From the NCBI GenBank assembly GCA_964408285.1, contig CAYOYV010000018.1, positions 1-19,507 on the forward strand: a stretch of DNA of 19,507 nt, read 5' to 3'. The stretch is from an uncultured Nitrososphaerota archaeon (GTDB lineage Archaea; Thermoproteota; EX4484-205; JAAOZO01). This document shows positions 50-9,710 of the stretch, one piece after another; position 1 is the stretch's first letter; every line of letters begins with the position of its first letter. Below the pieces are notes generated by a model that saw nothing but the letters and a program-made list of their open reading frames with translations, did not search any database and was not told where the DNA came from. The position numbers and the translations under genes were made by a program.

Positions 50-185
50 TGCGCCAGGCAGGATTTTCGCCAAAGTGACTCGAACCTGCGAATTCAGGTC
101 ACGGGTCCGCATAACACGGGCCTGCGAACTCCTTCGAGAAGGGATCTTGAGTCCCTCGCCTTTGTCCTGACTCGGCAACTGGCGC
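50..185 (-). tRNA. tRNA-Leu(CAA) with two non-canonical introns (36 nt in the variable arm, ~93-128; 15 nt at 59/60, 64-78)
   Basis: Minus strand: acceptor GCGCCAG/CTGGCGC-A, D-stem GCC/GGC, anticodon arm AGGGA-CTCAAGA-TCCCT, long variable arm, T-stem GCAGG/CCTGC. Removing 36+15 nt leaves an 85-nt mature tRNA with T-loop TTCGAGT. The T-loop intron has BHB central helix TTCG/CGAA with bulges AG|T and AA|T. Confidence 0.9.
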
Positions 186-278
186 CTTACTCCCCCTCCC
201 ACGATTTCAGACACTTCTCCCTAAATTAAGTTTATTGCAATGGATCCTCGTTGTGTCTGTATGCTACGGACCTAAACA

Positions 279-285
279 TTTTAAA
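279..285 (+). promoter_or_regulatory. TATA box of the wHTH-PAC2 operon (probably leaderless transcript)
   Basis: TTTTAAA about 24 nt upstream of the ATG at 309, typical archaeal spacing. Confidence 0.5.
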
Positions 286-308
286 CTCCGCTGGCCGATC
301 GAGAATCA

Positions 309-587
309 ATGCCCCTCCTGACAGATCTCTTTGGAGATTCGGTGCAAGTGAAGATAATAGAGTTCCTATTGCTACATCCCGGAAAGTTATTCAGCCAATC
401 ACAGATATCGAGAGAGGCAGGTTGTTCGGGGTCAAGCGTTGGAAGGGTCCTTGAACCTATAATGAGAATAGGGCTCGCAAAGTCAATCTCGTTCCCTGGA
501 GAAGCCAAGATAATAGGGCTGAACGCCGAAAGCCCTATTACAAAGGAACTACTCAGGCTCAAAGAGGTTCTGGGACCGAACAAATGA
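309..587 (+). CDS. Small winged helix-turn-helix protein (92 aa)
   Basis: LFGDSVQVKIIEFLL...FSQSQISREAGCSGSSVGRVLEPIMRIGLA is a typical archaeal wHTH pattern. ATGA overlap with the next gene. Confidence 0.8.
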   Translation: MPLLTDLFGDSVQVKIIEFLLLHPGKLFSQSQISREAGCSGSSVGRVLEPIMRIGLAKSISFPGEAKIIGLNAESPITKELLRLKEVLGPNK

Positions 588-1216
588 GCGTCTTCACGGA
601 ATTCCCCCTAGGGGAGTTGCCATCGCCGGCAAACGTGATGCTAATTGGCCTCCCAGGGGTATCAGTCGTCGGAAGAAGAGTAGTCGACAAGATATTGGAA
701 GTAACGAAGTCAACGGAATTGCTGAAAACAGTGCCACACTTCCTTCCGGACATACTGATAGCTGATGAGGAGGGAAGGCCATATCTTCCTGGTCTCGATT
801 TCTACAGGTCAAACAAGGGAGATCCGACGATAGTTTCTGTCACAAGTAACTTCCAGATAGACCTCCTGCCTTCTCCTTTTTCATATTGGATTGCAGAGTA
901 CCTAGTGAGAAAAGCCAAGGAATTCTCTTGCAATAAGATCGCCGTTCTAGGTACGGTATTGGGGAAAAAGACCGTTATCTTCTACTTGGCAAGTGGCGAA
1001 GCTTTCTCTCCATCAATAGAATCACTTAATCTGACTCCATTACAGCATCGCAGCATCGAGGGCATCTCTGCCCTTGTATTGCCTATGTCTCGGTTCTACA
1101 AGATCCCTGCCATTGAACTGGCGTTTCAGGTCACTGCGGATGGTTCAGCCCCGCCATCATTAGTCAACGATGGATTCTCGCTCTTAGTTCGTTTACTGGA
1201 TCTTAACATTCCTTAG
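584..1216 (+). CDS. PAC2-family (proteasome assembly chaperone-like) protein
   Basis: N-terminal LIGLPGVSVVGRRVVDKIL matches the PAC2 GxPGxGxVG motif. Later IAVLG and SIEGISALVL segments fit the family. Translationally coupled to the wHTH gene. Confidence 0.75.
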   Translation: MSVFTEFPLGELPSPANVMLIGLPGVSVVGRRVVDKILEVTKSTELLKTVPHFLPDILIADEEGRPYLPGLDFYRSNKGDPTIVSVTSNFQIDLLPSPFSYWIAEYLVRKAKEFSCNKIAVLGTVLGKKTVIFYLASGEAFSPSIESLNLTPLQHRSIEGISALVLPMSRFYKIPAIELAFQVTADGSAPPSLVNDGFSLLVRLLDLNIP

Positions 1217-1221
1217 GACGC

Positions 1222-2574
1222 TCATCTAAACCAATCTTGGATGAGACCTACTACAGGTGGTCTAGTGGCTTCTACCCCATAGCGGGAAAAGGGTTTTGTC
1301 AAATGCCTCTGGCCGGTTGGATCTGGCAGGTAGGTTCCCTCCAGTATTCTTCTATTCGTTCTCTCTATGACGGGGACGGCCATTCGGTAATCACAATGTC
1401 TGCATCGATACCCTTGCCTCAACCCCTTGCTATCGCATCTTATTCTGCAGTTAGGACAGATCGGCGCTTTCTTCACATTTACATTGACGAGTTCGAGCAC
1501 TTCTAACTTCTCAAGGTTTAGGAAGATTGAACCATTTCTTTGTCTTGTGCCACCACAAACGAGGACTTTATCCCCTACTGTCAATGCGGAAACAACATGT
1601 CTCAGGCGCCCGGATTCCCTGTAGCATACAACATCGAGCTTGCTCGTTCCTAAATCAACTCGGCATACTACGTGACCGCCTCTTATGATCCTAGGTTTAG
1701 CGCAGACGTTTGCATTGGCGCAGAAGACAATATGAGGCCGTTTCGGAACGGGGGGCTGATTTCCTATGCGGTAGAAGGCTTGGAAATGGGCATCTGTTCC
1801 TTGATTTGTCTTGAATATCATCCAGCCGGCGATTTCCTCATTAATCTTCAGATAACTCAGTGCGTTGAGCACGGCCTCCGGAGTTTCACCTCTAATGCCA
1901 AACAGAATAGGATCGGGGCCATGGGGGGTTATCAGAATCCTCCTGTTGTCAAGGTCGATGTTATTGAACGTAAGGGACCTAGTTCTCTGGTCCATCAGAA
2001 TGATGCTTTGCTTATCTACCTTTCTGGGCTTACCACACATCTCGCTACTCCGGTAAGCTAAGAGCTCGTATGTACAGTCTCCACTGAGGTCTGCTCCCAA
2101 TGCGGAGATGGCGCCAACCGATCCAATCTTGGAGTCTTTGAGGAATAGTATGCTGATTCCGTGACTTTGTGCGAAATCCAGAGCCTCCTGAACGCTTATT
2201 ATGTCGCACAACGCGCGGCCATAGAAACGAGCGAGGGCGCCATTTTGGATGCCAGTGTAGGATAAAGCGACCGCAGGATTTGTGTCGCGTTCTTGCATAT
2301 GTGAATTCCTTTTTACCGTGTCTTCTATGAAATCTGTAAAGCGGTTCATGTCAAGATTATCACCAATTGGATACGAGATTTTGATAGCAGCATTGCCCTT
2401 TGTCTTCCTTGGGAAATTCGGGTTGAGCCTCACGAGGTAGGGGTATTCTATCGGTGTGATGTCGAAGGTCTGCCTTATGCGCTTCACTATCTCGTAGGCC
2501 ACGTGTGTAGTACAGCCACCCTTTAGAGAATCTGTGTCATCTATTCCGATATCCAACCTGGTAGGAATCGACAT
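1222..2574 (-). CDS. tiaS: tRNA(Ile2) 2-agmatinylcytidine synthetase TiaS (the ORF extends to 2649; start more likely 2574 or 2601)
   Basis: Motifs IGIDDTDS..GGCTT, LVRLNPNFPRKTKGNAA, PHGPDPILFGIRG, TNQGTDAH, an OB-fold, Zn ribbon CPNC..CRHC and RHLTKP. TTAAAT on the minus strand at ~2613-2618 favours a downstream start. Confidence 0.95.
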   Translation of the reverse strand: MSIPTRLDIGIDDTDSLKGGCTTHVAYEIVKRIRQTFDITPIEYPYLVRLNPNFPRKTKGNAAIKISYPIGDNLDMNRFTDFIEDTVKRNSHMQERDTNPAVALSYTGIQNGALARFYGRALCDIISVQEALDFAQSHGISILFLKDSKIGSVGAISALGADLSGDCTYELLAYRSSEMCGKPRKVDKQSIILMDQRTRSLTFNNIDLDNRRILITPHGPDPILFGIRGETPEAVLNALSYLKINEEIAGWMIFKTNQGTDAHFQAFYRIGNQPPVPKRPHIVFCANANVCAKPRIIRGGHVVCRVDLGTSKLDVVCYRESGRLRHVVSALTVGDKVLVCGGTRQRNGSIFLNLEKLEVLELVNVNVKKAPICPNCRIRCDSKGLRQGYRCRHCDYRMAVPVIERTNRRILEGTYLPDPTGQRHLTKPFSRYGVEATRPPVVGLIQDWFR

Positions 2575-2666
2575 GGTCTTTGCTTGCGTTAGGTTATGCA
2601 TCTGGTTGTGAGATTTAATCGTTTTTGATTCCTGTAGCCGATTAGGCATTTTAACACCTATAACGC

Positions 2667-3341
2667 CTAAACGAGAATTACCGTAACTTGGTCCGGACTA
2701 GACCTAAGCTCCTCGATTTTCAAGTCCTGAGTATTGTCCACTAATTGATAACCGATAATCTTGCTCGCCAGTCCCTTCTTAATCAATGAGCGTATCATGA
2801 CATCTAGTAGCTCTTTGTCGTGCGAGAGGTCAACACCCATCGCTTCTATGATTAGTTTGTTTGCCTGTTCTGACTCCACCTCGCAGAGCAACTCCGTGTC
2901 AGAAATGACAACCGCTACCTTTTTTCCTCCCTCCGCAAGGGGCTTGACCCGCGAGTCGTCCTTGAACTTCTCGGCCAGCGTCCGCAGCCATTCTGTGTAG
3001 GTCGTTTCCACGTTCTCCATGCTCTGTCTGTATCTTTCTTCCACAGAGAGAATTCCGTCATACAGCACTATCCTCACGGAATAGACTTTGGTGTCTCCCT
3101 CCGACGCCACATTAAATAGCTGCAAGGCCAAAGCTCCCACTTTTTTGGGATCGCTCGTGTAAGCAACCATCTCAAAACCGGTTCCTTGGCCCCTCTCTCT
3201 GCCATCGACTATTATTTCACACTCCTTGGTCGCGTCCTTCCATCTGTTCCTAATGTACTTATTGCAGTTCTGATCGATGATCCCCGGCTCGTCCTCGGGT
3301 GTCCAAACGGTGACTCGCATGGCTTTGGTTAGACGTGACAA
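2667..3341 (-). CDS. Hypothetical protein (224 aa from TTG; alternative ATG at 3320)
   Basis: Long ORF with protein-like composition starting 6 nt after the stop of the LAGLIDADG gene. No motif recognised. Confidence 0.75.
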   Translation of the reverse strand: MSRLTKAMRVTVWTPEDEPGIIDQNCNKYIRNRWKDATKECEIIVDGRERGQGTGFEMVAYTSDPKKVGALALQLFNVASEGDTKVYSVRIVLYDGILSVEERYRQSMENVETTYTEWLRTLAEKFKDDSRVKPLAEGGKKVAVVISDTELLCEVESEQANKLIIEAMGVDLSHDKELLDVMIRSLIKKGLASKIIGYQLVDNTQDLKIEELRSSPDQVTVILV

Positions 3342-3347
3342 TTTGTC

Positions 3348-4283
3348 TTATAAACTCAACTCTTTCTTCTTTTTTATGGCCTCAAATATTGTCAGATGTT
3401 CGAGCCTTACGGTCCCTATTTCTTCGATGAATTTCAAATGGTCTTCCTCCGGAAGCGTGAACCAGCGATCAGTCCATTTCTCTATCCTCCCCCTCCTCAC
3501 TCTCTGCCTCTCCTTCTCCTGAATCTCATGCGGATGGAAACCGAGATCCATGAAGGCTTGCCTAAGTTCCTCTAAGCAGTCCCTATACTTAGAGTACACT
3601 CGTATCATGTATGTCTCACCAGTTTTGCTCACATTTCCATCTCCTGAAAAGAACCCCTTCAAATATGCCCTTAATCCATCTTCATCTAGGTGCTCAATTG
3701 GCACGTGAAACCTGTATGGACCTGTCTTGATACCAATATCGTTGAGGTCATAGAATATCCCCTTATCGTTTATCATCGCCCTTATCATTCCGTCAGCTTC
3801 AAAATAGTGATGCGAAGTCTTATTGTAGACCTCTTTAGACAAACTATCGAAAAGCCCGATGGGTTCCTTATCTTTCGAATTAAGATATGTCTTGTATTGG
3901 CCGTAATATCTTCCTCTGGACTGATCGAAATACCAATAGAAATGATTCCCTCCATCGGAAGCTATTAAGCCGCAAAGCAAGGCTTTAGCCGGGCTAAGTA
4001 TCTCTCTTCTCCCCCTTTCGGATACTTCCAATAACATTCCGTGACTTAAAGGAAAGACGACCCTATCCTTCTCTATCGACACGTCGGAAAAAGTGCCGAC
4101 GGCTAGGTCCCCTTTGGCCAGCTCATATCCTCCGTCCTTTGACTTATACATCTCGTATCCTCCAAACACCTTCACAAGCTCGGGCATCTCATCGAAGATG
4201 CACTCCTCCTTCTCGCCCGACCATGCTGGCTCTCTTTGAGAGAACCTCCTTTCATGCTGTCTTATCGCTGATCCACTGCCCAT
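3348..4283 (-). CDS. Free-standing double-motif LAGLIDADG (DOD/intein-type) endonuclease-like protein
   Basis: Two LAGLIDADG helices, ALLCGLIASDGG and AYLKGFFSGDGN, about 105 aa apart. The pattern VP..L....LRAYLKG..IRVYSK..CLEELRQAFMDLGF..KFIEEIG is typical of intein-type endonucleases. No C-terminal intein HN block. Confidence 0.85.
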   Translation of the reverse strand: MGSGSAIRQHERRFSQREPAWSGEKEECIFDEMPELVKVFGGYEMYKSKDGGYELAKGDLAVGTFSDVSIEKDRVVFPLSHGMLLEVSERGRREILSPAKALLCGLIASDGGNHFYWYFDQSRGRYYGQYKTYLNSKDKEPIGLFDSLSKEVYNKTSHHYFEADGMIRAMINDKGIFYDLNDIGIKTGPYRFHVPIEHLDEDGLRAYLKGFFSGDGNVSKTGETYMIRVYSKYRDCLEELRQAFMDLGFHPHEIQEKERQRVRRGRIEKWTDRWFTLPEEDHLKFIEEIGTVRLEHLTIFEAIKKKKELSL

Positions 4284-4284
4284 T

Positions 4285-5439
4285 TCATTTACCTGCGAAA
4301 GAATTTGTCAGAGCCAACAGGTTGTGAGTGGTTAGTGTCCTGATATAAGATGTCCCACATTCGAATCCGGTGTCAAAAAGCTCCTGAGGCATCCTTCCTT
4401 TGCAGATCTCACAATGACATTCCTCATACCTGATTTCTGGATCCCCCATTTCGTAGAACCTGCCGTTCTTGAAGTAATGTTCATGCTTAGCCTCTATGAA
4501 CCAGGAGAGATTGCTATAGCTTACCCCTTCATGTCTGATTCTATAAGCGACCCCATAGAGAAGAAGTTGCCAGTCTAGGCCGTTGACGTTACGGTTCTCG
4601 CCTAAGACATCGAGGGTACGGGATACGAAGCCTTCCAACAAGCGTTGCTCGAGGAGTTCTCGTGCTGGCATTACGAAGGAGACGTACCCCATTTCAATCT
4701 GCTTCTGGAGTGCCCAACGAATCTGATGCGTATCCGCCCCCTTGACCAAACCAATCACGGGAAGTTGTAGATCAAGAAAATCATTAGCAAAGGTTACTAG
4801 GCGTATTGTTTGGGTCCAAGACTGGTAGAGCGGGACATCAGTGTAAGTATAATTGTCAGGTACCATCGTGGCATCCGGTCGGAGATCTGTGATGAGCTGG
4901 AAATAGTCCTGCCTCTTGAGCTTATCGATGAATTCATCCTGCATCACGGTGGATAGCAGTATCTTCCCGTCAAATCCCAAGTAGTCGTGTAGGCCCTTGC
5001 TCGTGGCGTTAGATAGAACGTTCTCGTTAACTAACAGTTGCCACAGGGGGACAAATATCGCTGGTAGCTTGATCCCTTCGTTCCAGAACCATGACTTTTC
5101 GTCTTGGGTATCGATCTCCGGCACGAATTTAGGGAAATCTACCTTCACCTTGCGCTCGTTCTTGATGGATGGAACCTGCAAAGGAGGGGACCTAGTCTTG
5201 CCTCCAATTGGGCAATACGACCTCATCGTGCAGAACGACTTCGGGTAGGTCAATCCTGTATAAGAGATCCCCTTAATGCATTGCCAGACGAGGCAACCTC
5301 CTGCAGTGCAGCCAAAGCACAAGTCCTTGAGGTAAGGGCAATTCGTACATCTGATTCCGCATCTCCCCTGTTCTCTCACGATCCACTTGATCTCTTTCAA
5401 TAATGTATTTCTCTGCTTAATTCCGTATTTATAACTCAC
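4285..5439 (-). CDS. Divergent tRNA-guanine-transglycosylase (TGT)-fold-like protein with N-terminal Cys-rich metal-binding domain
   Basis: N-terminal CGIRCTNC..CFGC..C..C..C..C (DUF3795-like). TGT-like segments KGLHDYLGFDGKILLS, MVPD, VIGLVKG and LLYGV, plus C-terminal Zn site CHCEIC...THNL. GTG start. Confidence 0.7.
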   Translation of the reverse strand: MSYKYGIKQRNTLLKEIKWIVREQGRCGIRCTNCPYLKDLCFGCTAGGCLVWQCIKGISYTGLTYPKSFCTMRSYCPIGGKTRSPPLQVPSIKNERKVKVDFPKFVPEIDTQDEKSWFWNEGIKLPAIFVPLWQLLVNENVLSNATSKGLHDYLGFDGKILLSTVMQDEFIDKLKRQDYFQLITDLRPDATMVPDNYTYTDVPLYQSWTQTIRLVTFANDFLDLQLPVIGLVKGADTHQIRWALQKQIEMGYVSFVMPARELLEQRLLEGFVSRTLDVLGENRNVNGLDWQLLLYGVAYRIRHEGVSYSNLSWFIEAKHEHYFKNGRFYEMGDPEIRYEECHCEICKGRMPQELFDTGFECGTSYIRTLTTHNLLALTNSFAGK

Positions 5440-5590
5440 CGATAGGGCTCATCAGGATAATTGAGGATCGGCTCCAAGAGTATGAGAGAGTTATTTCCCT
5501 TTGCATTTGCCGTAGATCTTAGGCTTTGATCTTACCTCAGTTGTTCGGCACTCAGGTTAGTTATCTGTGAGGTTGTTAATTCATTTACAG

Positions 5591-5627
5591 CTCTTTGAGA
5601 GTATGCAGCATGAACTTGTTCAAAGAG
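5591..5627. repeat. 8-bp inverted repeat directly 3' of the tRNA-iMet discriminator (possible trailer hairpin or terminator)
   Basis: CTCTTTGA (5591-5598) / TCAAAGAG (5620-5627). Confidence 0.4.
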
Positions 5628-5772
5628 TAGCGGGGCATGGATTTGTTCCGAGCAAAAAGCTCGCTTGAACCATGGCTCTCAGGGTTATGAGCCCTGCGGG
5701 TTAGACCTAGTTGGGCCTTTCTTTGGTCTACCCCATTACGGCTACTCACCGTGGAGATGAGCAGACCCCGCT
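5628..5772 (-). tRNA. Initiator tRNA-Met(CAT) with three non-canonical introns (7/8: 5736-5765; 15/16: 5711-5727; 58/59: 5643-5664)
   Basis: Acceptor AGCGGGG/CCCCGCT-A (A1-U72), anticodon arm CAGGG-CTCATAA-CCCTG with three G-C pairs, T-arm CATGG-TTCAAAT-CCATG. The 145-nt gene minus 30+17+22 nt of BHB-flanked introns gives a 76-nt mature tRNA. Confidence 0.93.
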
Positions 5773-5805
5773 ATTGCCCCGCCGTTGATGATTTTTCCGT
5801 CCGGT

Positions 5806-6376: not shown

Positions 6377-6853
6377 ATGGGGAGACTCAAGGTTTCATTT
6401 AGGCACAGAGGTTCTGTTATCTCGATACTGGCCAAAGATCCAGAGGAGATGGCTAGGCTTCTGGAAAGCGTTCCAGAGATCTTCAGGAAGATTGACGATG
6501 CCTTGGAAAGGGCCAAAACCCGAGAGGAAGAGGAAGTGGACTACAGTAGTCTGATTAGGATAGACGAGAATGGGGGCCCCATATTAAGGGTCATGGAAGG
6601 AAGCACGACCGATAAAGAGGCAATTATGCTCTTGCTCTACCCGGCAGGTGACGAAGGGCTCAGGTCTGGGGACATAAACATGAGGCTCGGCCTAAGCGGG
6701 GTCGTAGCAGCAGGCTATGCCTCCAGACTGACGGAGATGAGGAGGGAAGGCATAATCACGAGAAAACCCACAGGAGAACACGTATTGACGGAGAAGGGGA
6801 AGATGATGGCAAGGGAGCTGGTGAAAAGACTCAAAGAGGCTGTTCAGGAATGA
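6377..6853 (+). CDS. Putative DNA-binding protein with C-terminal winged HTH
   Basis: EAIMLLLY..GLRSGDINMRL....YASRLTEMRREGIITRK..GEHVLTEKG is a wHTH with its wing motif. Confidence 0.75.
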   Translation: MGRLKVSFRHRGSVISILAKDPEEMARLLESVPEIFRKIDDALERAKTREEEEVDYSSLIRIDENGGPILRVMEGSTTDKEAIMLLLYPAGDEGLRSGDINMRLGLSGVVAAGYASRLTEMRREGIITRKPTGEHVLTEKGKMMARELVKRLKEAVQE

Positions 6854-7356
6854 CTGGTGACACCATAGAAGCGCTCATTGAAATAAAGACGAATACAGGC
6901 GTAGTTTCATCAACATTCTCAGGAACAGCGGAAGAGGTTCTCAGGGCGGCTGTCCGTTTCCTATCGGAGTCCTTGCCTGCATTTTCAATGGTTCACAGAA
7001 TCCTTCTGACTGTCCCATCAGCAGAGCAGCTAGTTGATCTCTTGGGCGACGATGTCAAGATAGCTGGAAAAGACATCGTGCTGCTGAAGAAACCCTCAGA
7101 CGCTGCGGAAGGAATAAGAAAAGTGCTTATAGCTGCGAGGATATGTTTTGAACTGGGGGTCACCGACACATCTGCTCTTTCCGTGAAGGAGTTGTCAAAA
7201 ATAACATCAATAATTGAGAAGACGATTAACAACAACTTGACGGACCTGGTCAAGACTGGCGGGGTAGAACGCGTCTCGAAGGGAACGTACAAAATTACCG
7301 ACAGGGGGCTGCTTGGAACTTACGCCATTTCATCTAAAGCAGGTGCGCGGCAGTGA
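6850..7356 (+). CDS. Putative DNA-binding protein with C-terminal winged HTH
   Basis: LSVKELSKITSIIEKTINNNLTDLVKTGGVERVSKGTYKITDRG is a wHTH. ATGA overlap with the upstream gene. Confidence 0.8.
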   Translation: MTGDTIEALIEIKTNTGVVSSTFSGTAEEVLRAAVRFLSESLPAFSMVHRILLTVPSAEQLVDLLGDDVKIAGKDIVLLKKPSDAAEGIRKVLIAARICFELGVTDTSALSVKELSKITSIIEKTINNNLTDLVKTGGVERVSKGTYKITDRGLLGTYAISSKAGARQ

Positions 7357-7413
7357 TGGATATAGCGGGTTGTGGGGTTGGACCCCACGCAATAATAGGG
7401 AGGTAGACATGGT

Positions 7414-8253
7414 ATGTCCCGCCACCCCCAGATTGAACTCCTGTTCTCTGAATATATTAGAAGCTTACCCTTAATGAAGCGAGAGTTCAACTCTCCCGGC
7501 CTCAGATTTGCAGACACAGATATGAGCGTCATTGGGGGTGTGGAGGACCTAAGGTTACTTGATCCATCAGCGCCTGCATTACCCATAGCAGCGGTCGACG
7601 CGTCCTCGAACATGATTGGCTATTCGGGCGGCTATGCGTACGAATTGCTCAGGGCAGGAATCGTAATGAAAAAAGGAAACGGGAGAATGAGGCTGATAAA
7701 ATTGGGCCCATTTATCATCAAGTCTTCCTCGGATGGTGCGTCATTTCTCTTTGAACTGGAGACCCTGGCTCAGAGAATGGCAGGTAGGAGGATCAAGAAC
7801 GGTATCGTGTTGTTCGATGGGACCATGATTGAATCAACTGACTCAGAGCTCACCCTCGGTTCTTTTGAAGGGTTGAGCAATTCGATATCCCTAAGTAAGG
7901 TGGTTCCGGTCTCGCGGATCGGCAACAGTGAGGAACTGCCGAAGAATCCTTTCATCGCAAAACTGAAAGACGAGGATTGTTATTTGGTTAGATTATCTTC
8001 CAACGGCTTCGTACTGAGAGCGCGAGCGTCTACCAAGGACATTGAGTCAACGGCCTGGCTCTTCTCTTGTTTGTCCAGAAGCGACTCAATAGAAATGGGA
8101 TATCCGCGGACAATGAAGTTGGCTCACATGTACTCTAAGATACTGTCTATGGACATAATATCTGCACGGCTGGCGTTGTTTGAGAAACACAACATAAGGG
8201 CCAGAGATCCGATCGATGGGCGGAAGCTACTTCTCGGGTGCCTGTGGGGATAG
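7414..8253 (+). CDS. NurA-family nuclease
   Basis: IAAVDASS, LFELE, IVLFDGT, SLSK and GYPRTMKLAHMYSKI are NurA motifs. SD-like GGAGGT upstream. Adjacent to a HerA-like ATPase. Confidence 0.8.
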   Translation: MSRHPQIELLFSEYIRSLPLMKREFNSPGLRFADTDMSVIGGVEDLRLLDPSAPALPIAAVDASSNMIGYSGGYAYELLRAGIVMKKGNGRMRLIKLGPFIIKSSSDGASFLFELETLAQRMAGRRIKNGIVLFDGTMIESTDSELTLGSFEGLSNSISLSKVVPVSRIGNSEELPKNPFIAKLKDEDCYLVRLSSNGFVLRARASTKDIESTAWLFSCLSRSDSIEMGYPRTMKLAHMYSKILSMDIISARLALFEKHNIRARDPIDGRKLLLGCLWG

Positions 8254-8255
8254 GT

Positions 8256-9710
8256 ATGTTCTACTTGCTGTCAAAAAGCGGCCCCAATTATGAGATTTTG
8301 GAGCTTCCGGCGGGGGATGCGGAGATAGGGGCCTTCCTAGCACTCAGAGCTCCGGAATCAAACAGAACCCTTGTGCTCCAGATCTCCGATATATCATACC
8401 TCAAGCTACCGGGCGAAATCGAGGAGATAATTCGGGTGACGCGAGCTTCGGACATGTTGGTGGAGTCGCAAGCAGATGGTATCTTCGAACGATTACAAGA
8501 CGAAATAATGGATTCCAAGCTTCTGAAATGCAAGGTACGAGGCGCGATTCAAGATGGAGGCTTCTCGACGAATACTCTCTGGGCCCCCTCAAGAATGCGG
8601 TCGTCGATATATGCGATATCGTTCGAAGACCTAAAGTCGTCGCTACGTGCTAACACATTGATTCCGGTCTCATTGGGGCGCGCTTTGGGAACGAAAGCGC
8701 CGATTCTCCTAGACCTAACTGATGTTGACGGTGCACTCACTTTGATACTAGGAAGAAAAGGGGCTGGGAAATCGATGCTTGCGAAGAGTATAGTAAATTC
8801 CTTAGTTGCAAACGGGGCAAAGTGCCTGGTTCTCGATGTGAATAATGAGTACCTCTCTCGATTACCTTCCGATGAGTTTGCAGTCTGGGAACCCGGAGTT
8901 AATCTGAGGTTTGAATTCAAGAACCTGTCCAAGGGGATCTTCCTAGCACTTTTGGAGGACCTCATGGAATTGCCTCCCTCCTCTGTACTGGAAATATCGA
9001 GGACATGGGATAGACTGGAATCGAGTGGCAGGTTGTCGTTCTTAGGACTCAAACGGGAAATCCTGGCCTCCAGAATCAATGATCTGGTCAAAGAGGCACT
9101 CTCAAGAAGGCTTGATGTCGTCTACAACTCGGGCATAATAACTGACGATCCGGAGACTATTGACCCCCTTGCTCAATTGAATCGTAAGGGAGGCTTCTGC
9201 ATTTCACTGGCCTTGCGTGGGAGGTCGTCATTCCTTAGGAGGCTCATCATAGAGCTGCTGATGAAGAATATCATATCCGCCCTAGAAAAAGACGAGATCA
9301 CACCATTTTTCCTATTTGCAGAAGAGGCGCACACATATCAAGATATGAAGTTCTGGGAGGACCTCGTTACACGCATGCGCCATTTGGGCCTTTCAATGTT
9401 CTTCATCACGAACGAACCAAACAGTCTTTCTAATTTCATCTACAGACAAGCCGATTCCCTCTTCCTTTTCAATTATTTCAATGACAACGACCTATTCTTT
9501 CTCTCTAGGGTTTCCGATCTGGATACAGAATCTCTATTGTCGTATGTGAGGGGCCTACCAGATCGTTGCTGCCTAGCCGTAGGTAAGATAACCTGCAATC
9601 TGCCACTGTTATTTGAAACGTACGCAGACGTGATATTCGAAGGAGGAAAGACAAAAACCTTCTTTGGGGCTCGCGCGATTCAGACTATGAAGAGGGCTTC
9701 TCCTGGATAG
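8256..9710 (+). CDS. HerA/FtsK-family ATPase (start probably ATG 8256; ORF track start 8238)
   Basis: N-terminal HAS-barrel-like region, Walker A GRKGAGKS, LVLDVNNEY, Walker B FLFAEEAH and Arg-finger TRMRHLG. Confidence 0.88.
   Translation: MFYLLSKSGPNYEILELPAGDAEIGAFLALRAPESNRTLVLQISDISYLKLPGEIEEIIRVTRASDMLVESQADGIFERLQDEIMDSKLLKCKVRGAIQDGGFSTNTLWAPSRMRSSIYAISFEDLKSSLRANTLIPVSLGRALGTKAPILLDLTDVDGALTLILGRKGAGKSMLAKSIVNSLVANGAKCLVLDVNNEYLSRLPSDEFAVWEPGVNLRFEFKNLSKGIFLALLEDLMELPPSSVLEISRTWDRLESSGRLSFLGLKREILASRINDLVKEALSRRLDVVYNSGIITDDPETIDPLAQLNRKGGFCISLALRGRSSFLRRLIIELLMKNIISALEKDEITPFFLFAEEAHTYQDMKFWEDLVTRMRHLGLSMFFITNEPNSLSNFIYRQADSLFLFNYFNDNDLFFLSRVSDLDTESLLSYVRGLPDRCCLAVGKITCNLPLLFETYADVIFEGGKTKTFFGARAIQTMKRASPG

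Follow-up and report, generated by a model that had tools for sequence, protein, structure and literature searches.

The 3′ ends of tRNA genes are targeted by integrative elements that rely on tyrosine integrases, with casposons as a further point of comparison. Free-standing homing endonuclease genes, exemplified by the Seg and Mob genes of phage T4, spread by "intronless homing". A third group of relevance comprises the tRNA-guanine transglycosylases (TGT) and DpdA, in which two aspartates are reported to be invariant, replacement of either abolishing guanine exchange (PMC10164549). Here we describe a block of three genes, A, B and C, in a 19,507-nucleotide (nt) stretch of DNA from an uncultured Nitrososphaerota archaeon (contig CAYOYV010000018.1 of a genome designated G000; the whole stretch is called the window below). 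The genes lie between an initiator tRNA gene (tRNA-iMet) and tiaS, and encode a TGT-fold protein, a LAGLIDADG nuclease and an orphan protein, respectively. On balance, we think that the block is an intact copy of a family of compact mobile cassettes that do without an integrase, and we infer that a homing-nuclease mechanism underlies their spread. A full-text literature search covering few subscription journals returned, within that coverage, no published account of the trio or of its docking at tRNA genes, and the cassette is apparently undescribed.

The positions of A, B and C homologues and of the tRNA genes called by ARAGORN were mapped on 60 fetched loci and on the window, which together contained 64 cassette groups. 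A tRNA gene was present within 250 nt in 33 of the 64. Because ARAGORN, run with identical settings, finds only 20 tRNA genes in the whole 1.82-Mb genome of the window (93.7% complete), chance would account for such adjacency in well under one case in 64. The figure of 33 is itself a lower bound, since the program misses some tRNA genes, namely those of the window, of L017 (detected as a partial Rfam match) and of L060 (detected by alignment). Conversely, 16 of the 18 tRNA genes on 11-kilobase (kb) loci were within 250 nt of a cassette. When 34 adjacencies were sorted by orientation, the stop codon of C faced the tRNA 3′ end in 22, the start of A faced the 3′ end in five (the layout seen in the window) and the stop codon of B faced the 5′ end of tRNA-Gly(tcc) in five, while two involved broken copies. 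Family-wide, 28 of the 34 adjacencies face the tRNA 3′ end.

Direct repeats of 24 to 135 nt bracket 16 of the 57 groups with enough flanking sequence to be testable. The repeated segment consists of the 3′ part of the neighbouring tRNA gene and approximately 10-30 nt past it. At locus L020, where there is no tRNA gene, a perfect 135-nt repeat corresponds to the 3′ end of a Ham1-family gene. Since the 3′ segment of the target ends up on both sides of the insert, the target gene stays whole. In genome G014 the resident gene is a tRNA-Leu(CAA) with a 13-nt insert, and the far, partial copy has a TAG anticodon and no insert; the foreign anticodon and the missing insert imply that the partial copy came with the element and not from the resident gene. 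Together, these data show that insertion takes place at the 3′ ends of tRNA genes and, from time to time, at those of protein genes. Fragments of C genes were also observed between a complete cassette and its tRNA gene, or beside a second tRNA gene (L015, 3171-3645; L072, 3533-3989), which suggests serial insertions at one site with the older copy decaying.

An intact target, an element and a displaced 3′ fragment make up the classic attL/attR picture. The same structures might be produced if the element were excised as a small circle and inserted by site-specific recombination of the chromosomal gene with an att copy carried by the element, consisting of the 3′ part of the tRNA gene. A or C would then be an unrecognised recombinase, and B no more than a helper or passenger homing gene. 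In keeping with such a process, the far copy of G014 is foreign to the resident gene, and the repeat is seen with the element in both orientations. The repeats themselves argue for a different route: their length varies over the whole 24-135 nt range and their start points within the tRNA gene differ, which looks like homology and not like a fixed core site. Moreover, at tRNA-iMet genome G015 contains an element made of B and C only, between the two copies of a perfect 53-nt repeat, and searches of G015 turned up no A gene; A, at least, would then not be the integrase. The variable repeats and the A-less element thus favour a homology-based route over a recombinase.

Movement of the family can be followed by comparing related genomes. 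In one genus, the site between tRNA-Leu(caa) and tiaS is filled or holds remnants in G012, G014, G016, G011 and G008, and is empty in G023, G019 and G015. In trees of C (47 rows) and B (32 rows), the copies group by tRNA class, with clades for Leu (several isoacceptors sharing the 3′ half), Ala, Gly-tcc and Arg-ccg; such target-class clades imply sequence-directed jumps between tRNA genes. Copies L019 (genome G003, family f1) and L023 (genome G021, family f4) are 92.6% identical over 2914 nt. The match covers only tRNA-Gly and the cassette and the flanks fail to align, whereas the copy in a congener of G003 is only 86.7% identical and has flanks that align. These comparisons show that the cassette family moves between tRNA sites and between genomes. 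Within a single cassette pair (L019 versus L023, L021 and L026), synonymous divergence (dS) differs several-fold from gene to gene (for example, 0.47 for A and 0.12 for C), which hints at recombination between cassettes.

Homologues of A, B and C were found in 22, 20 and 21, respectively, of 41 genomes of relatives, and A in 19 of the 25 genomes of the same order. Across a sample of 301 genomes of the phylum, 23 had an A-family match at E ≤ 1e-15; outside the order, matches at this threshold were limited to 3 of 275 sampled genomes. The cassette is thus present in most genomes of one archaeal order and all but confined to it; the order is that of Brockarchaeota-type Thermoproteota according to the source names of the homologues. 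Individual genomes contain up to 19 matches to A, many of them fragments or interrupted by stop codons, and many copies run into the end of a contig, as repeats would be expected to. Among 20 fetched loci, 14 have A, B and C colinear, with overlaps or gaps of a few nt, four have C in divergent orientation (all four representing one orthologous site) and two have only A and B; cassette size is about 2.7-2.9 kb. The co-occurrence of the three families, on which an earlier note on this DNA had made its proposal of a novel three-gene system depend, was therefore borne out: A, B and C recur together, in the same order, in many genomes and constitute one unit. The flanks consist of unrelated housekeeping genes (a MiaB-like enzyme, S10, malate dehydrogenase, a LysX/ArgC cluster, Kae1 and others). 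Pfam searches revealed no integrase among 73 open reading frames (ORFs) flanking 10 of the 20 fetched loci, and no recombinase family in A, B or C.

The ratio of nonsynonymous to synonymous substitution (dN/dS) was determined on intact orthologous copies, pairs below 60% amino-acid identity being dropped, for a total of 27 gene pairs. Values ranged from 0.06 to 0.33 for A (6 pairs), from 0.08 to 0.18 for B (9 pairs) and from 0.09 to 0.46 for C (12 pairs). All three genes are under purifying selection. Such selection would also be expected if the copies served the host by processing, modifying or guarding the neighbouring tRNA gene or its transcript, perhaps in relation to the numerous unusual tRNA introns, and had spread by duplication and not as selfish elements. 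A role of this sort would be in line with the position of the copies next to tRNA genes, with a TGT fold that is a tRNA-binding fold, with lineages that track tRNA class and with genomes whose tRNA genes are heavily interrupted. It does not account for the many broken copies, for sites that are filled in one congener and empty in another, for transfer between families, for lineages that use the ends of protein genes with no tRNA (L020) or for the varying orientation toward the tRNA. In addition, A is missing from 4 of the order's 25 genomes, and A and B are both missing from two, none of these genomes being more than 92% complete. We consider a host-serving module the least probable of the explanations weighed here, with a very slight chance of being correct.

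The genome of the window contains a second, deeply divergent cassette on contig C17 (L109, 63-2735, minus strand). It adjoins the gene for cysteinyl-tRNA synthetase (CysRS), and its B belongs, with the G004 and G007 copies, to a deep clade set apart from the others. At 2864-2962, 130 nt away, there is a tRNA-like match to the tRNA-Sec model that stays below the threshold (29 bits). The third ORF of this cassette, the putative C′, aligns to C with an hhalign E value of 0.049 and a probability of 1%. At locus L065 (G023:C11:2800-9500; 1862-4390), some 2.5 kb of unrelated DNA interrupts B between residues ~111 and ~197, which may represent the insertion of another element.

Protein B, which the earlier note had described as a free-standing LAGLIDADG nuclease, is a free-standing, monomeric LAGLIDADG protein with two motifs. 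The assignment is confirmed by the match to Pfam LAGLIDADG_3 (PF14528; E 5.3e-9, 36.7 bits against a cut-off of 22.5), by the motifs and by the similarity of the core (approximately residues 98-284) to I-DmoI (5akm; E 2.1e-9). In an alignment of 29 sequences, D110 of the first motif, LCGLIASDG, is present in at least 90% of the rows and is otherwise replaced by E; D215 and G216 of the second motif, LKGFFSGDG, are invariant. The core is preceded by a conserved, family-specific N-terminal domain of about 95 amino acids (aa). The gene is a free-standing ORF, associated with neither an intron nor an intein, and is found between A and C in the fetched loci. From its conserved residues, B looks like an active nuclease, and cleavage is predicted. 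One B homologue (P0142), 48% identical to the B protein of the window, is labelled as coming from a Candidatus Jordarchaeales metagenome-assembled genome (MAG), outside Thermoproteota; this placement could be due to transfer or to mis-binning.

The "TGT-like" label given to A was likewise confirmed, by profile and by fold. A profile of 28 A-family members matched the archaeal TGT (ArcTGT) of P. horikoshii in the PDB (1iq8; E 1.3e-6). The AlphaFold (AF2) model of A has a mean pLDDT (predicted local distance difference test score) of 81, residues 1-80 being poorly predicted. It matches ArcTGT with a Foldseek E of 1.7e-11; superposition on 1iq8 gave a VIA Z of 25.7 and a root-mean-square deviation of 2.6 Å over 277 residues, identifying residues 96-384 as a TGT-fold TIM barrel. 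All 28 sequences keep the four zinc ligands, C341, C343, C346 and H372, which align to the ArcTGT site. In the N-terminal domain, the same alignment shows nine invariant cysteines (C27, C31, C34, C41, C44, C49, C54, C70 and C76). No Pfam family was assigned to this domain in the six members checked, and an Atlas search gave only DUF3795-like rows (TM ~0.3), which were not used. No relative of A was found in the viral contigs of IMG/VR.

The catalytic residues were checked in two ways, by HMMER alignment to 1iq8 and by hhalign comparison with the true ArcTGT encoded elsewhere in the genome of the window. The general-acid aspartate ("DSGG" loop; Asp95 in DpdA) corresponds to S163/T164 or to a gap in A. 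The nucleophile ("DMFD" motif; Asp256 in DpdA) corresponds to S309 of a "SYSN" motif, a position that is alanine in some members and is not invariant. An invariant aspartate, D195 of "PDNY", aligns with the aspartate of the ArcTGT motif "LDIP", and may be the equivalent of the base-recognition residue Asp130 of DpdA. Scores against the family models are low: 14.2 bits for Pfam TGT (PF01702), below the cut-off of 26.3, and 16.5 for NCBIfam TIGR00432, far below the cut-off of 350; the match to the PADLOC TGT model is sub-threshold (E 1.2e-4). Because it fails the catalytic-residue tests, A was not filed as a TGT or DpdA enzyme. Judged by these residues, A is not a base exchanger; in function, it is presumably more akin to TGT paralogues without catalytic activity, such as QTRT2 of eukaryotes. 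An ordinary archaeosine-pathway operon was also considered and was ruled out, since a separate, bona fide ArcTGT exists and the trio is multicopy and decaying.

These findings bear on the suggestion, made in the earlier note, of a DpdA-like modification-plus-nuclease module. In a restriction-modification-like or addiction system of this type, A would insert a 7-deazaguanine-type base into DNA and B would cleave DNA that lacks it, with C as the subunit for specificity or regulation. The fold and zinc site of A, its weak PADLOC match and the apparently active nuclease next to it suit this proposal. In their large number per genome, their divergence and their decay, the paralogues are reminiscent of defence or addiction genes, and the occupied locus seems to keep potential B sites, which would call for protection. 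The proposal founders on the replacement of both the general acid and the nucleophile (T164/S163 and S309), seen in two independent alignments, as mutating either aspartate abolishes exchange in DpdA (PMC10164549), and on the score of A under the Pfam TGT cut-off. No DpdB-like or preQ0 gene was present among the neighbours scanned. In the window, the larger ORFs were assigned by Pfam to tiaS, PAC2, a HerA-like ATPase and housekeeping genes, with no DpdB-like ATPase or preQ0 synthesis gene among them, and the neighbours are housekeeping genes, not defence islands. Finally, the genome that harbours the B and C element yielded no A gene, and the repeats at tRNA ends would be left unexplained. We therefore regard a modification system as very unlikely. 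The loss of the catalytic aspartates in A implies that annotations of "DpdA-like DNA modification" based on fold need a catalytic-residue check.

TGT-fold paralogues resembling A were found with other partners on contig C8 of G000 (L111, 1172-4387), at the end of contig C17 of the same genome (L110, 13269-16447) and at L015 (7201-8955). One of them, of 334 aa, is followed by orphans of 440 and 277 aa; another, a "long A" of 609 aa, precedes an orphan of 450 aa. Such long A proteins (585-661 aa, 26-30% identical to A) are themselves multicopy in relatives. These paralogues may represent other cassette types built on the same fold.

Protein C, which the earlier note had left as an unrecognised protein, proved to be an orphan with no clear solved relative. 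It is 224 aa long (217 aa if translation begins at an ATG at residue 8). The AF2 model shows a two-domain alpha/beta protein with a pLDDT of 94. Pfam, NCBIfam and PADLOC contain no family for C, and a word-based protein search, a PDB profile search and an Atlas search returned nothing. C has only 36 representatives among 1.84 billion proteins. The model had no Foldseek match at E ≤ 1e-3, and the best VIA-wide Z, 5.7, reflects a generic ferredoxin-like N-terminal domain. C is thus an orphan family under purifying selection with a confidently predicted fold unlike any solved structure. Its invariant residues are W13, E40, K85 and E154. A solitary C gene was found at L090 (G005:C168:20200-22700; 617-1644), with a complete tRNA-Leu gene on either side, one gag and the other taa; the two tRNA genes have 61 nt in common at 95% identity. 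Genome G005 is without any A or B match.

The properties of C and A are pertinent to the recombinase alternative. C is without any known fold relative and A has a strongly conserved pocket that is not that of a TGT, so that either protein could hide a new activity, and the purifying selection on all three genes would agree with such a function. C, however, has no invariant Tyr or Ser and no His-hydrophobic-His signature, and the catalytic residues of B are kept in all lineages. Taken with the evidence from the repeats, this makes site-specific recombination unlikely in our estimation, while leaving it, as the chief competing explanation, an appreciable minority chance.

We favour a homing mechanism, which can be outlined as follows. 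B, as an I-DmoI-like LAGLIDADG nuclease, would cut the unoccupied target, and the homologous repair machinery of the host would then take an occupied site as template and copy the cassette from it. Acting as a portable homology arm on both sides, the duplicated segment of the target would allow the element to reach any tRNA gene with the same 3′ half. C would be the constant partner of B. A would be a remodelled TGT-fold metal-cluster protein that helps without being essential, for example by binding tRNA-shaped nucleic acid. The roles of A and C are guesses. A cut by B followed by homologous repair would account for the structures found, the foreign anticodon of the G014 far copy among them.

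Several observations weigh against this interpretation. A B site inside the repeat would survive in occupied loci, so that something must limit self-cutting; perhaps C or A does so. No consistent immunising change was seen between repeat copies. The repeat is absent in 41 of the 57 testable groups, and five copies at tRNA-Gly sites face the 5′ end of the tRNA. The purifying selection on A fits poorly with a dispensable A, and G015, the source of the A-less element, is only 92% complete. The genomes are MAGs, and mis-binning could mimic transfer between families. As concerns the window, no flanking repeat above chance was detected around the cassette; in a Smith-Waterman comparison of the tRNA with the region beyond C, the score was 16, compared with 15.6 ± 2.1 for shuffled sequences. 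The copy is on a long branch, with at most 43% (C) and 53% (B) identity to any other copy, and its guanine-plus-cytosine (GC) content is only mildly deviant. We read the mobility of this copy from its family membership and from one empty site in another genus, the spacers being unalignable. In the contigs of four sediment-metagenome runs there was no joint, empty site or circle, and contigs drop rare forms; for this reason the lack of a circle junction is also a weak argument against a recombinase.

All three genes of the window copy are intact. Their arrangement agrees with that reported in the earlier note, namely three co-oriented ORFs (1-nt gap between A and B, 6-nt gap between B and C, as verified from the ORF list) placed between the 3′ end of tRNA-iMet and tiaS, as verified by alignment and Pfam (Table 1). 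The B/C gap becomes 27 nt if C begins at the ATG that forms its eighth codon; C homologues and a database copy (P0121, 217 aa) begin at this residue. The tRNA-iMet gene is on the same strand, its 3′ end facing A from approximately 188 nt upstream of the A start. The spacer presumably contains the cassette promoter and left border, and it does not align to the tRNA-iMet/tiaS spacer of G002.

Table 1. Coordinates of the cassette genes and neighbouring features in the window, and of the second cassette of the same genome
Feature	Coordinates	Strand	Size	Remarks
Gene A	4285-5439	-	384 aa	GTG start; listed ORF
Gene B	3348-4283	-	311 aa	Listed ORF
Gene C	2667-3341	-	224 aa	TTG start; listed ORF
tiaS (tRNA-Ile2 agmatidine synthase)	1222-2649	-		Pfam TiaS_FLD (E 7.9e-40), TiaS_TCKD and zinc ribbon
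tRNA-iMet (CAT)	5627-5772	-		Exon blocks 5772-5766, 5735-5728, 5710-5668, 5645-5627
Spacer, tRNA 3′ end to A start	5440-5626	-	187 nt	Sequence read
Second cassette, A	1593-2735	-		Contig C17
Second cassette, B	685-1614	-		Contig C17
Second cassette, possible C′	63-713	-	216 aa	Contig C17

Synteny was compared as the earlier note had proposed. In G002, which belongs to the same family and to another genus, an intron-bearing tRNA-iMet gene lies approximately 270 nt upstream of tiaS on the same strand, and the interval contains nothing like A, B or C. The trio is not part of a syntenic core genome; G002 provides the empty counterpart site. In genus g2, it is tRNA-Leu(gag) that precedes tiaS. The G002 spacer matches only the tRNA end and the start of the tiaS coding sequence, which leaves the exact insertion point undefined. 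Contigs from four sediment-metagenome runs (X1, X3, X6 and X8), belonging to four studies of which one may be the source, have the same filled arrangement with zero or one difference. The GC content of the cassette is 0.472 compared with 0.494 for the genome, which places it at the 3rd percentile of 634 genome windows, a mild deviation. That no integrase and no att duplication are visible, as originally noted, holds for the window in Pfam and repeat searches, and PADLOC matched the composition to no described system. Of the possibilities raised at the outset, a selfish cassette at a tRNA 3′ end is the one that fits the evidence. We are somewhat inclined to believe that the window copy arrived between tRNA-iMet and tiaS and has since lost its flanking repeat; signs of ongoing movement of this copy were not seen.

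The gene beyond the insertion, tiaS, is a host gene and is outside the cassette. Its relatives align only from residue ~25-32, and the true start may be approximately 75 nt further in. The rest of the window contig is ordinary chromosome, with genes for enolase, a Pelota-like factor, the PolD small subunit, RPA and an ABC transporter. A plasmid or virus contig was ruled out, the window and contig C17 both carrying housekeeping genes. Just beyond tRNA-iMet, four overlapping or abutting ORFs occupy positions 6377-9710 on the plus strand. They encode a 158-aa orphan, a 168-aa protein with a weak Mrr_N-like winged-helix match, a 279-aa orphan and a 490-aa P-loop ATPase of the HerA/DUF87 type, and could be a NurA/HerA-like or defence-type module.

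The tRNA-iMet gene of the window was missed by ARAGORN and Rfam. It was found by aligning positions 5625-5778 of the minus strand to the intron-less initiator tRNA of a relative (L078), which resolved four exon blocks separated by three non-canonical inserts of 30, 17 and 22 nt. The inserts sit near position 7/8, in the D-loop and in the T-loop; once they are removed in silico, ARAGORN calls a tRNA-Met(CAT). The low number of tRNA genes found by ARAGORN suggests that many tRNA genes of this genome are probably interrupted likewise. Running ARAGORN under relaxed settings with long introns gave mostly false calls.

A more ambitious reading of the data is that the cassette represents a new, self-contained DNA integration system without an integrase, in which a programmable B, a new-fold C and a catalytically repurposed A with its metal cluster would recognise tRNA-shaped nucleic acid and insert about 2.8 kb precisely at chosen gene ends, with the target rebuilt. 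We consider this possible, if doubtful. If it were true, repeated cassette hits on tRNA genes may drive the extreme fragmentation and intron load of these genes here. The fragmentation of tRNA genes as a response to mobile elements is an old idea, on which the family bears because its targets are tRNA genes in genomes where such genes are unusually interrupted. More generally, a mobile element that is directed at tRNA genes and encodes none of the known recombinases provides a testable case of integration that is driven by a homing endonuclease and brings its own homology arm along. A, for its part, exemplifies a TGT fold that has lost its chemistry and been put to a new use in a mobile element. 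The lineage-specific LAGLIDADG nucleases, whose natural targets are known, might find use as tools as well.

The cassette can be compared with three groups of described systems. With ArcTGT (1iq8), bacterial TGT and DpdA, A shares the TIM-barrel fold and the invariant CxCxxC...H zinc site. It differs from them in that both catalytic aspartates are replaced and the Pfam and NCBIfam scores are far under the cut-offs; it lacks the C-terminal PUA-type domains, adds the nine-cysteine N-terminal domain, and is encoded in a mobile, multicopy cassette instead of by a single gene for housekeeping or in a dpd cluster. Like the integrative elements that target tRNA genes, the cassette inserts at tRNA 3′ ends, has lineage-specific targets and leaves the tRNA gene intact, with a displaced partial copy as a direct repeat. 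Unlike these elements and casposons, it carries, in Pfam scans, neither a tyrosine or serine integrase nor Cas1; it is only ~2.8 kb long, with three genes, repeats of variable length and some targets at the ends of protein genes.

With I-DmoI-type homing endonucleases, of which I-DmoI itself is the best solved relative, B shares the monomeric two-motif chain and the conserved catalytic acidic residues. It differs in its location outside an intron or intein and in the extra N-terminal domain of about 95 aa, and its cleavage activity is a prediction from sequence. In the manner of free-standing homing endonuclease genes, B is lodged between host genes and belongs to a family that shows presence/absence variation and horizontal transfer. 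In contrast to such genes, B always travels with C, and usually also with the TGT-fold gene, in a cassette that docks on the 3′ ends of genes and is bracketed by target duplications of 24-135 nt.

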